Shown piece by piece: positions 22,810 to 26,778 of a DNA stretch of 37,193 nt (position 1 is its first letter; each line of letters begins with the position of its first letter). The notes beneath the pieces are model-generated. The model saw nothing but the letters and a program-made list of their open reading frames with translations, ran no database searches and was not told the DNA's origin. This stretch comes from a virus (Duplodnaviria > Caudoviricetes), in IMG/VR virus record IMGVR_UViG_3300033067_001088, positions 1 to 37,193 of that record, one strand, 5' to 3'. The translations under genes and the position numbers were made by a program.

Positions 22810-23001
22810 ATGACTGAGTTAAAAGACGTGTGCGAGCTGGCGCGGGAACTGGTGGTTAAATACGACACCCAGGAACGCGCAGCAGACGCTGCAAAAGTGC
22901 ATCAGAACATCATTAGCCGTCTTTGTCGTGGCGAACGCTCAGATGTGCGTTTGAGCACGTACAAACGGATGATTGATGCACTCGAAAAATCTGTGAGGTA
23001 G
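22810..23001 (+). CDS. Cro/XRE-like helix-turn-helix regulator (63 aa)
   Basis: TQERAADAAKVHQNIISRLCRG HTH. GGGGG RBS before ATG 22810. Confidence 0.8.
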   Translation: MTELKDVCELARELVVKYDTQERAADAAKVHQNIISRLCRGERSDVRLSTYKRMIDALEKSVR

Positions 23002-23161: not shown

Positions 23162-23237
23162 GGGCGTACAGCACTGGGTGTGCAGTCAGGTGATCATGAC
23201 CCTGAAAGGCGCGGTTCGATTCCGTGGTAGCCCGTCA
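23162..23237 (+). tRNA. Degenerate tRNA-like element (CAT in an enlarged anticodon loop)
   Basis: D stem GCAC/GTGC. Anticodon stem TCAGG/CCTGA around TGATCATGAC. T arm CGCGG-TTCGATT-CCGTG. Imperfect acceptor GGGC(G)TAC/GTAGCCC. Ends TCA rather than CCA. Confidence 0.55.
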
Positions 23238-23261
23238 ATTTTAATAAACGAGGATTTCAAA

Positions 23262-23831
23262 TTGAGTAATCACGTAACCCCATCCATTGGCCGCATCGTC
23301 TGGTATCGCGGTCAGGACAATATTGTCCGCGCCGCCATTGTCACCCACGTCTGGAGTCAATTCCTGATCAATCTGCACGCCTTTGGCAAAGACCAGAACG
23401 ATCCAGAGGCGGGTATTCATACATCGGTAACGCATGGCGATATTGAGCACGAGCCGAGCTGCTGCCCGTCATGGAGCTGGATGCCATACCAGAAAGGCCA
23501 GGCCGCAAAGACCGAGCAGTTGGAGCAGAAGCTGGTGAGCGGTTCTGTTGGCTGCTCAACTGACGTGGGCTGCAGCAGTTTACTGCCGCACCAGCAGCGC
23601 GTAGTCACCGAGCGCGATGAACTGGTAGGCCGCCTGTCTCGGCTCTATGACTTCGTTGACGACGATAACCCGGTGTTCAGCAAACTGGATGACGAAGAAA
23701 AAAGCCGTTTGCGCCGCCAGCTTGGCCACATGACTGGTTATGCCGAAGTGCTGGGCGAGCGCATTGCTGCTTTCCAGCAAGCCATCATTCCGGATGCGGT
23801 GATCAAGTCACATGGGGCTGTCTCAAGTTGA
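23262..23831 (+). CDS. Two-domain protein: unknown PSIGRIVWY domain plus crAss001_48/Y16Q-like domain (candidate anti-defence)
   Basis: TTG start with GAGGA RBS. The C-terminal half has PHQQRVVTERDEL...RLRRQLGHMTGYAEVLGERIAAF. Confidence 0.75.
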   Translation: MSNHVTPSIGRIVWYRGQDNIVRAAIVTHVWSQFLINLHAFGKDQNDPEAGIHTSVTHGDIEHEPSCCPSWSWMPYQKGQAAKTEQLEQKLVSGSVGCSTDVGCSSLLPHQQRVVTERDELVGRLSRLYDFVDDDNPVFSKLDDEEKSRLRRQLGHMTGYAEVLGERIAAFQQAIIPDAVIKSHGAVSS

Positions 23832-24030
23832 GACTGGCTCGCCACTGGAATTGCTGACCTTCTGCGTCCTGGTGCTGCGCAACGGTTTCACCGTGACCGG
23901 CGAGAGCGCATGCGCCAGCCCTGAAAACTTTGATGCAGAAATTGGCCGCAAGATCGCCCGGCAGAACGCCATCAACAAAATATGGCCGCTGATGGGTTAT
24001 GCACTCAAACAGCGACTGCACAATCAATAA
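23812..24030 (+). CDS. tad1: Gp49-family / Tad1-like nucleotide sponge domain, probably fused to the upstream ORF through a frameshift
   Basis: LTFCVLVLRNGFTVTGESACASPENFDAEIGRKIARQNAINKIWPLMGY. No Shine-Dalgarno before its ATG. Confidence 0.7.
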   Translation: MGLSQVETGSPLELLTFCVLVLRNGFTVTGESACASPENFDAEIGRKIARQNAINKIWPLMGYALKQRLHNQ

Positions 24031-24047
24031 CCTCCAAGCTACATAAC

Positions 24048-24073
24048 AAAGCCCTGCAAGTCAGGGCTTTTTT
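24048..24073 (+). terminator. Rho-independent terminator
   Basis: AAAGCCCTG-CAAGT-CAGGGC-TTTTTT. Confidence 0.85.
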
Positions 24074-24154: not shown

Positions 24155-24292
24155 ATGAAAACACGAAAGAACATCACCATCTGCCCGATAGTCTGGGCGG
24201 AGTTGAAAAAGCAGGCGCAGAAGATGGGGCGCAGTGCGGCAAGCCTGAACGAAGAAGCTGTGCGTAAGTATTTGGCGGAGGTGAAGAAATGA
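24155..24292 (+). CDS. Ribbon-helix-helix DNA-binding protein (45 aa)
   Basis: RKNITI strand plus two helices. GAGGT RBS. Confidence 0.75.
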   Translation: MKTRKNITICPIVWAELKKQAQKMGRSAASLNEEAVRKYLAEVKK

Positions 24293-26778
24293 ATGTCGAT
24301 TACATGAACTTTGTTCGCAGCAAAATCCAGCTGGCCAAGTTTGATGGGTTTGAAATTGATGAAATTGAAATTTCCCCTATCCTGAAGCCGCACCAGCGAG
24401 ATATTGTCAAATGGGCAGTTCGCGGCGGTTGTCGTGCTATTTTTGCCGCGTTTGGTCTTGGTAAATCGGTAATGCAGATTGAAACGCTGCGTCTGATTCA
24501 TGCGCACGCTGGCGGCAAGGTTTTAGTTATTTGCCCGCTCGGTGTCCGTCAAGAGTTCAAGCGCGATGCTCAAATGCTTGGCGTTCAGTTTGAGTTTATT
24601 CGCCGCGAATCCGAAATGGTTGAAGGTTGCGATTTCTATCTGACCAACTATGAATCCGTGCGAGACGGCAAGCTGGACGTTAACCTTTTTACGGCTGTTT
24701 CTCTGGACGAAGCATCGGTTTTGCGCTCGTTTGGCAGCGATACCTATCAGACGTTTTTGCAGGTGTTCAAAACAGTCAAATATCGTTTTGTCGCGACCGC
24801 AACACCATCGCCAAACCGATTCAAGGAATTGATTCACTATGCAGGTTTTCTTGGCATCATGGATACAGGCCAAGCATTGACCCGGTTCTTCAAGCGCGAT
24901 TCGACAAAGGCTAATAACTTGACGCTTTATCCGCACAAAGAGCGCGAGTTCTGGCTATGGATGAGTTCATGGGCGGTATTCATTAGCAAGCCGTCAGACC
25001 TTGGATACGATGACGACGGATACGATATGCCACCGGTAAAGGTCATCATTCACGAGTTGCCGACTGATCACGATGGAGCCGGAGCAGACCGCGACGGTCA
25101 GGGCATCCTGTTTCGTGATACGGCAATGGGGCTGTCATCGGCAGCGGCGGAAAAACGGGAAAGCCTGGAAGCTCGGATTGCTAAGACGGTCGAGATCGTC
25201 AACGCATCGCCTGATGATCACTTCATTATCTGGCATGACCTAGAAACCGAACGTGCGGCGATTCAGAAGGCCATTCCAGAATCTGTTGCCGTTTACGGAA
25301 ATCAAGACCTTGAAGATCGTGAAGATCGGATTATCGGATTTTCCAATGGCGATTTTCGGATATTGAGTACCAAGCCGGTTATTGCCGGTTCAGGATGCAA
25401 TTTTCAGCGTCACTGTCACAAGATGATTTTCACCGGCATTGGCTACAAGTTTAACGACTTTGTACAAAGCATCCATCGGGTTCAACGATTCCAGCAGCAA
25501 TATGAGTGCGAGATTCACATCATCCACACCGAAGCCGAGCGCGATGTTTTGAAGGTGCTTTTTGAAAAGTGGAAACAACATAACGAGATGGTGACCAACA
25601 TGACCGAGATTATCCGCAAATATGGCCTGAACCACATTCAGATGGCCGAAGAACTGACCCGTTCCATTGGAGTTGACAGAATCGAGGTATCTGGCAATGG
25701 CTGGACAGTAGCTAATAACGATTGCGTTATTGAGGCACGTCGCCAGCCTGAAAACCATGTAGACCTGATTGTCACGTCGATTCCGTTCGCCAATCATTAC
25801 GAGTACACCCCGAGCTACAACGATTTCGGCCACACTGAGAACAACAATCATTTTTGGGCGCAGATGGACTTTTTGACGCCGGAACTGTTGCGCATCCTAA
25901 AGCCTGGCCGCATCTACGCTTGCCACGTTAAAGACCGCATCCTGTTCGGCAACGTGACCGGCGCTGGCGCTCCGACTGTTTCCCCGTTCCACTGTGAAGC
26001 GACGTTCCACGGCCTAAAACACGGTTTTGACTACATGGGCATGATTACCGTAGTTACTGACGTGGTGCGCGAGAATAACCAGACTTACCGGCTCGGCTGG
26101 TCTGAGCAGTGCAAGGACGGGACAAAAATGGGTGTTGGCTCACCTGAGTATATTATTCTGTTTCGCAAGCCGCAGACTGACCGCACAAGAGGTTATGCTG
26201 ACGACCCGGTCAAGAAATCGAAAGAAGACTATACCCGCGCCCATTGGCAGGTTGACGCTCATGCGTTCTGGCGGTCAAGCGGAAACCGCATGATTACCGC
26301 CGAAGAAATGGCCGGTTATGGCCCGGATAAACTGGCATCTCTGTACACAAAATACAGCCTGCAAAACGTCTATGACTACGAGCATCACGTAAAATTGGGT
26401 GAAGATTTGGAATTGCGCGGGGCTTTGCCTTCAACGTTCATGTCATTAGCGCCAGGTTCGCACCATCCTGACGTATGGCATGATGTTAATCGCATGTTGA
26501 CACTGAATAGCGATCAATCAAAACGCGCCGTGGAGCAACATGTGTGCCCTTTGCAGATCGATATTGTTAAACGACTGATTGAGCGTTACAGCAATAAGGG
26601 CGAACTGGTTTACGATCCATTCTGCGGGCTTGGAACTGTGCCCTACTGTGCGCTGGAAATGGGTCGAAAAGGTCAAGGCAGTGAATTGAATCCGGGTTAT
26701 TTTATGGATTCCACATACTATCTGAAATCAATGGAGCAGAAGGTAAGTTCGCCAAAATTATTTGATTTTGAGTTTTAG
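24289..26778 (+). CDS. SNF2-like helicase fused to an N4C/N6A DNA methyltransferase
   Basis: FGLGKS, LDEAS, TATP, GCNFQ and R..RFQQ helicase motifs. DLIVTSIPF, HVCPLQ and DPFCGLGT methylase motifs (beta order). Confidence 0.9.
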   Translation: MNVDYMNFVRSKIQLAKFDGFEIDEIEISPILKPHQRDIVKWAVRGGCRAIFAAFGLGKSVMQIETLRLIHAHAGGKVLVICPLGVRQEFKRDAQMLGVQFEFIRRESEMVEGCDFYLTNYESVRDGKLDVNLFTAVSLDEASVLRSFGSDTYQTFLQVFKTVKYRFVATATPSPNRFKELIHYAGFLGIMDTGQALTRFFKRDSTKANNLTLYPHKEREFWLWMSSWAVFISKPSDLGYDDDGYDMPPVKVIIHELPTDHDGAGADRDGQGILFRDTAMGLSSAAAEKRESLEARIAKTVEIVNASPDDHFIIWHDLETERAAIQKAIPESVAVYGNQDLEDREDRIIGFSNGDFRILSTKPVIAGSGCNFQRHCHKMIFTGIGYKFNDFVQSIHRVQRFQQQYECEIHIIHTEAERDVLKVLFEKWKQHNEMVTNMTEIIRKYGLNHIQMAEELTRSIGVDRIEVSGNGWTVANNDCVIEARRQPENHVDLIVTSIPFANHYEYTPSYNDFGHTENNNHFWAQMDFLTPELLRILKPGRIYACHVKDRILFGNVTGAGAPTVSPFHCEATFHGLKHGFDYMGMITVVTDVVRENNQTYRLGWSEQCKDGTKMGVGSPEYIILFRKPQTDRTRGYADDPVKKSKEDYTRAHWQVDAHAFWRSSGNRMITAEEMAGYGPDKLASLYTKYSLQNVYDYEHHVKLGEDLELRGALPSTFMSLAPGSHHPDVWHDVNRMLTLNSDQSKRAVEQHVCPLQIDIVKRLIERYSNKGELVYDPFCGLGTVPYCALEMGRKGQGSELNPGYFMDSTYYLKSMEQKVSSPKLFDFEF

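Follow-up and report, generated by a model that had tools for sequence, protein, structure and literature searches.

A phage accessory cassette joining an unnamed barrel domain to Sequestin, next to a truncated Acb4: a candidate family of anti-immune modules

The locus

The window, i.e., the whole stretch of DNA that was analysed, is the complete 37,193-bp record of a tailed phage. Its terminase, portal and coat genes are P22-like by Pfam, with best matches to the coat at <60% identity. After the beta-helix tail gene there is also a BTLCP transglutaminase-like protease gene (PF06035; 17065-17433). The region of concern here is flanked by a small HTH gene (22810-23001) on one side and by an SNF2/methylase gene (24289-26778) on the other, and has these features:

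23162..23237, plus strand: degenerate tRNA-like sequence, by sequence and fold, directly 5' of the cassette
23243..24049, plus strand: accessory cassette; related phages have an empty site
23262..23831, plus strand: ORF1, TTG start, 189 aa; a domain without family name ('N-domain') followed by Sequestin
23262..23531, plus strand: the unnamed N-domain (PSIGRIVW...AAIVTHV...INL...WMPYQKGQAAK); five-strand barrel plus C-terminal helix in an AF2 model
23586..23768, plus strand: Sequestin domain (PF21825) by Pfam match, with R113, E117, Q153 and R167
23798..23804, plus strand: SD-like GGTGATC, 7 nt 5' of the ORF2 ATG
23811..23812, plus strand: deletion junction, at which the parent gene has lost an estimated 212 bp, coding for a linker and the initial 28 residues of the Acb4 core
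23812..24030, plus strand: ORF2, 72 aa, +1 frame; most likely an Acb4 (PF13876) remnant lacking N-terminal helices and first strand
24048..24073, plus strand: intrinsic-terminator-like hairpin and T-run, fold z -4.15; retained in the empty-site form

An empty-site joint (23242 to 24050, 807 bases skipped) is found in contigs of 4 of the 4 runs examined. As the short sides of these contigs are only 21-29 letters long, the contigs are attributed to related phages, and given that an empty-site form exists in related phages, the ORF1/ORF2 region is an accessory cassette, one inserted between the tRNA-like stretch and the terminator hairpin. That stretch has a D-arm, a T-arm and CAT in its loop; ARAGORN and Rfam made no call there. 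In locus L086 a tRNA-Trp (1212-1285) occupies the same place, so that the insertion hotspot appears to come after a tRNA array that is variable. The strong terminator which the initial annotation placed after the coding region is present as the hairpin and T-run listed above, which a simple terminator scan did not pick up. Run X3, for its part, holds a second allele (record 21) over 23236-23770 with 36 differences, mostly third-position, which diverges from the window sequence past the Sequestin domain.

ORF1 and its Sequestin domain

ORF1 has GAGGA upstream of its TTG, at 23250-23254, and shares 170 of 183 residues with an intact relative, P0066. Its residues 109-169 match PF21825 (E 9.6e-18; 64.3 bits vs a cut-off of 24.8), with no Pfam match over residues 1-108. 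The initial description, that is, of one ORF joining a nameless domain of about 90 aa to a crAss001_48/Y16Q-like domain, was correct. So was the statement that the Y16Q-like family is a signal sponge: Tal et al. (10.1101/2025.07.12.664507) gave PF21825 the name Sequestin, describing it as a 3'cADPR sponge with anti-Thoeris function, 10 of 13 tested family members being active. The pocket residues named there for SequestinB, R7, E11, Q45 and R59, correspond in an alignment by eye to R113, E117, Q153 and R167 of ORF1. Going by family membership and these four key residues, the Sequestin half of ORF1 likely binds the Thoeris signal 3'cADPR.

The unnamed N-terminal domain

An AF2 model of the N-domain (pLDDT 79) consists of five strands and a C-terminal helix. 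Among the matches listed, the solved structures closest in fold are barrels of the Tudor, PWWP and KOW types (best Z 6.9); the model is thus of a Tudor/KOW/SH3-like barrel, a common arrangement. No solved sponge was among those listed matches, an absence that excludes nothing. Searches domain by domain, as had been proposed for this locus, gave a split outcome: Sequestin and Acb4 were matched, and the N-domain found no sponge among the matches listed.

No Pfam, NCBIfam or PADLOC family matched the N-domain, PDB sequence searches gave nothing significant, and matches in the ESM Atlas were viral clusters without names only. It corresponds to the N-terminal part of PHROG 2293, the function of which is not annotated, with 41 of 41 aligned members matching. 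The family is nevertheless large: a profile made from short members without fusion partners yields 5,612 representatives (50% identity) at E 0.001 and 3,132 at 1e-10. Conserved are G10, R11, W14, N37, W73, M74, P75, Y76, Q77 and K83, which cluster in the model at the barrel's two ends and the helix start. This clustering is what a putative binding site would look like, yet the domain carries no net basic charge (6 K/R vs 9 D/E). A complex prediction for two copies scored 0.02 (mark 0.42), which counts neither way.

Three named candidates were considered. The domain is not gp68_N of RyR Tad, which scores -0.3 bits against the profile, and identity with Lockin or Acb5 is unsupported: five N-domain motifs were absent from the Lockin table and from the Acb5 rows listed, and named members of both look, by eye, unrelated. 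A name for it was found in no paper among open-access texts. Two reviews list no such family in the parts available (PMC13712596, PMC13728456), and PMC13243611 and 10.64898/2026.07.21.739742, to the extent available, deal with other proteins. The Sequestin homologue table of Tal et al. does contain the domain as an unremarked passenger, with 17 WMPYQ matches (PMC12265669 file 7); their search used Pfam families only (10.1101/2025.07.12.664507), to which the N-domain is invisible.

Association with phage sponges

Among the best 150 of the 5,612 representatives, 19 have a Pfam partner, with 18 of these partners belonging to sponge families (10 Acb4, 4 Sequestin, 3 Tad2, 1 RyR), the other being a weak Rad17; the remaining 131 of that 150 have none. 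A fifth sponge family, Tad1, lies behind the N-domain in P0098 (8KBB, E 2.8e-14, PDB search). For that Tad1 part the best PDB match is in fact a phage protein, gp184 (8Y6V chain I), above the named Tad1 structures. Fusion to RyR is seen in L001, L064 and P0056. Other three-domain stacks run N-Acb4-RyR (L001 3001-4062) and N-Acb4-Sequestin (L034 2998-3990), and stand-alone copies are found between sponge genes, i.e., Acb4-N-Tad2 in L040 and RyR-N-Acb4 in L063, as well as in L083 and L106.

Using home-made profiles of the five families (Acb4, Sequestin, Tad2, RyR-Tad, Tad1), a sponge was found fused to or flanking the N-domain at 24 of 80 viral loci, or 18 of 59 after de-duplication, vs 0 of 80 loci (47 distinct) of an ERF control; these viral loci are the closest 80 of 349, which biases them towards the fusion-rich clade of the window. 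Over de-duplicated loci, Fisher's test gives p 8e-6 for fused or adjacent sponges (18/59 vs 0/47) and p 0.012 for neighbours only (7/48 vs 0/47), with the N-domain loci not being phylogenetically independent. A DnaB control set had 1 locus only and was left out. With 4-kb flanks, 15 of 25 genome loci show the same association. The survey suggested by the initial annotation thus came out in its favour, with the domain joined to all five families.

The tree of 161 N-domains, made with a quick method, has 5 of 157 branches well supported and 18 partner-label changes (27.7 when shuffled), of which only 2 are forced. With so little support and so few forced changes, that tree is not usable for counting fusion origins. 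The five partner families are unrelated, so several separate joining events would be needed.

Immediate neighbours at the 59 loci (115 ORFs) are mixed, involving recombination, packaging/head, lysis and integration genes, with a packaging or head gene immediately adjoining at about 9 of the 59. The only cultured-phage match in the phage collection is Pseudomonas phage PA8 (L084 2992-3798, QYC52271.1), in which the N-domain is fused to a C-terminal part of no known identity, two genes after terminase. A second unnamed module (QREQLEYALVSGAA...) repeatedly separates the N-domain from Acb4, Sequestin or Tad2, in P0079, P0088, P0104, P0146, P0152, P0163, P0167 and P0208, and may be another candidate anti-defence unit.

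A sister subfamily (120 loci), characterized by a YGTPGG loop, is homologous to the N-domain (hhalign 98.3%, E 2e-14). Sponge fusions are seen in 0 of its 120 ORFs and sponge neighbours at 2 of 80 loci examined. Three proteins of 74-77 aa with the N-domain barrel motifs are found in the Tal et al. screen table (PMC12265669 file 6, rows 20, 40 and 105), as located by motif search, the proteins themselves being compared by eye only. Unlike the window's N-domain, they have the YGTPGG loop and no WMPYQKGQAAK helix; a search of that table with five motifs did not find the window's own subfamily. These look-alikes passed the structure filter as predicted hexamers. When they were combined with Thoeris I, Thoeris II, CBASS I (3'3'-cGAMP) and Pycsar cUMP, cultures collapsed for 0 of 3 (PMC12265669). 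With Pycsar cCMP, 1 was negative and 2 were not transformed (PMC12265669). Negative candidates, according to the authors, may bind signals outside of the panel (10.1101/2025.07.12.664507). The earlier reading of the locus had missed this screen result.

What the N-domain may do

Judging by the company that it keeps, the N-domain probably has an anti-defence role. Its further description, as a domain binding a nucleotide within an oligomer via R11, W14, N37, W73, Y76, Q77 and K83, is about evenly balanced between right and wrong, and the same may be said of the suggestion that it sponges up some signal which the panel of Tal et al. did not include. Supporting a sponge role is that the same fusion logic yielded Sequestin. 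The partner domain gp68_N, fused to RyR-Tad, is inactive alone against type I Thoeris (10.64898/2026.06.04.730250), and fusion partners therefore need not be sponges. The proposal, derived initially from fusion, that this is a candidate immune-signal sponge or anti-defence module is accordingly strengthened by five sponge partner families and weakened by the negative screening of a related subfamily.

It is rather unlikely that the N-domain lacks an independent immune role and serves instead for oligomerisation, stability or virion targeting, or is a roaming accessory gene that shares insertion hotspots with sponge genes. Members are mostly stand-alone, their contexts vary so as to include head/packaging modules and phage PA8, sponges are rare near the sister subfamily, and the inactive gp68_N serves as precedent. 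A general tag or passenger, however, should join other proteins as well, rather than sponges in 18 of 19 cases (Pfam partners, best 150 of 5,612), and stand-alone copies are hard to explain for a pure scaffold.

Also unlikely is an anti-defence domain that is not a sponge, i.e., a Tudor/KOW-like barrel whose binding partner is a defence protein or nucleic acid, or which cleaves a signal as does Acb5. Tad3-8 and Bes1/2 are precedents for acting without signal binding, and the nearest folds (Tudor, PWWP, KOW) are peptide- or nucleic-acid-binding barrels. Association with sponges, furthermore, indicates shared context rather than mechanism, and a domain that is not basic, with a sister subfamily negative in the screen, would be in keeping with such activity. 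Against this, each of the five partner families identified is a family of sponges, and the sister subfamily passed the pocket filter.

ORF2 and the truncation of Acb4

The match of ORF2 to PF13876 (E 1.5e-29) covers only positions 26-82 of the 82 in the profile, as one would expect of the Gp49-type domain which the initial annotation had seen in the +1 frame without its usual N-terminal part. The equating of that family with Tad1 was mistaken. PF13876 is Acb4, an anti-CBASS family, as PF11195 is Tad2 (10.1101/2025.07.12.664507), and the sole PDB match of ORF2 is Acb4 (9E4W, E 4e-4), which rules out Tad1; the same PDB search does recover Tad1 for P0098.

Within the window protein's cluster, P0064 (325 aa) and P0066 (345 aa) have all three domains intact. 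With P0066, ORF2 shares 68 of 72 residues, and the gap between IKS and MGL relative to that protein is 71 codons less one base, or about 212 bp. L086 DNA aligns with the window to 23811 and then runs on into the linker. For the right breakpoint, parent DNA gave 0 matches in the search and none among the collected loci, and the 212 bp is therefore an estimate from protein P0066. These comparisons identify the frame break as an out-of-frame deletion of about 212 bp in a three-domain parent gene. The initial idea of a three-domain anti-defence fusion consequently applies to the ancestor, for which P0064 and P0066 stand, rather than to the window's allele, in which Acb4 is truncated and out of frame.

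Against a model of the full-length relative P0058, in which ORF2 would begin at residue 46, the part lost comprises helices 3-16 and 22-28 along with strand 29-36. Retained are the C-terminal two strands and long helix; the complete Acb4 fold, of N-terminal helices and three-strand core, is present in P0064 and P0066. The three-strand core forms the Acb4 dimer interface (10.1101/2024.12.30.630793). Since that core needs three strands, and one of these plus the helices are gone, ORF2 is most likely a remnant that has lost function.

It is quite improbable that ORF2 is, alternatively, a working mini-Acb4, the deletion having split the fusion into two genes. ORF2 had been described as lacking an SD. 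In fact GGTGATC precedes its ATG, pairing with the anti-SD at -14.5 kcal/mol, as reached by 5 of 767 plus-strand ATGs, and ORF2 may be translated from there. That pairing is absent at the same place in L086, the frame is open and close to its parent, and P0063 starts at the same Met. The 7-nt spacing is long, however, one core strand of P0063 contains a proline, and what the deletion removed belongs largely to the fold just described, including part of the dimer interface.

Very improbable is a programmed frameshift or phase variation at GGGG (23814-17) that toggles between two- and three-domain forms. The ORF1 and ORF2 frames do overlap, such that shifting by +1 would connect the two; removal of one G, as initially proposed, does open the frame. 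The result is not a continuous natural protein, with 71 codons still missing. The G run, moreover, has no extra base, its four Gs being the native M-G codons (ATG GGG CTG, i.e., the M-G-L of P0064 and P0066), there is no slippery heptamer in 23700-23831, and runs of four or more Gs are common in the window (n=68). The check that had been suggested for these positions, done on contigs, which drop rare variants, found no indel in 4 runs. Slippage at the G run is ruled out by the native codons, the shortfall and the lack of a heptamer together.

Assembly error is barely credible, and is ruled out by exact repetition of the junction, with 0 differences, in contigs of the separately assembled runs X1 (756 bp, depth 58.7) and X2 (777 bp, depth 12.4), which are of one study, possibly the source study or even sample of the window, with a third run showing it as well, on a 97-bp contig whose left side has just 25 letters. 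Neither of the two causes initially offered for the frame break, assembly error or a programmed or phase-variable switch, is retained.

Among close relatives, the locus displays gain and loss of modules: Acb4 is gone in P0062 and P0014, and Sequestin in P0065 and P0010. Phage Ab09 escapes Panoptes upon deletion of its Acb4-Sequestin gene (10.64898/2026.06.04.730250). By analogy, Panoptes is a possible selective reason for Acb4 loss, which is only a lead, as losses go both ways among relatives.

Proposed explanation

In the explanation that we favour, and to which we give an even chance of being right as a whole, the ancestral gene combined the unnamed barrel, Sequestin and Acb4, as an accessory of the phage. 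A deletion then cut into the Acb4 part, leaving a predicted two-domain protein. The Sequestin half would remove the Thoeris signal 3'cADPR, and the Tudor-like half, likely a further sponge, would sequester another immune nucleotide. That ligand would fall outside of the five systems of Tal et al., e.g., other CBASS di- or trinucleotides, type III CRISPR cOA, or N7-cADPR and the like. Alternatively, the ligand site could depend on the WMPYQKGQAAK helix, which is missing from the screened sister subfamily.

More generally, and with slightly less than an even chance, the N-domain may found a large family, numbering in the thousands, of Tudor/SH3-barrel sponges for an unscreened signal. These would be stacked with Acb4, Sequestin, Tad1, Tad2 and RyR-Tad, with modules such as Acb4 dropped upon betraying the phage to Panoptes-type guards. 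Speaking against sponges are the negative sister look-alikes, the solitary state of most members, the commonness of the barrel, its not being basic, and packaging/head neighbours. With no Pfam entry, 5,612 representatives and five unrelated sponge partners, the N-domain is nonetheless a cheap, testable candidate anti-immune family. Because relatives were negative in five standard systems, the ligand may lead to a bacterial signal that is less studied or not yet recognized.

Comparison with known systems

Sequestin, Acb4 and their fusion have already been published. Tal et al. counted 91 Sequestin-Acb4 fusions, and a PF21825-Acb4 fusion of YH6 is among what is described (10.1101/2025.07.12.664507). 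The gp59 of Pseudomonas phage Ab09, an Acb4-Sequestin fusion, binds gcADPR and 3'3'-cGAMP and triggers Panoptes (10.64898/2026.06.04.730250). Like these, the window has the Sequestin and Acb4 families in one gene, if its ancestor is considered; it differs in having an extra barrel before Sequestin, with Acb4 last and, in this allele, truncated.

With Sequestin itself (the T4 Y16Q family), the likeness consists of a Pfam match far over the cut-off and retention of four key residues, in a domain here fused C-terminally to an unnamed one. The known hallmarks of the family are a dimer, 3'cADPR binding and a block of type I Thoeris. To Acb4 (SPO1, PDB 9E4W) the relation is one of family match, with the C-terminal two strands and long helix in common; ORF2 differs in that its N-terminal helices and first strand are deleted, and in being out of frame. 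The Acb4 hallmark is a tetramer binding cyclic dinucleotides.

RyR Tad, the gp68 of Pectobacterium phage CB1, was recently described as a sponge for gcADPR (10.64898/2026.06.04.730250). It resembles the window in that an unnamed N-terminal domain is fused to a sponge, the two N-terminal domains being different ones. With phage signal sponges as a class, lastly, the N-domain shares small size and frequent fusion to other sponges. The hallmark of that class is a homo-oligomer with positively charged inter-subunit pockets, and the sister subfamily is listed as a predicted hexamer (PMC12265669).
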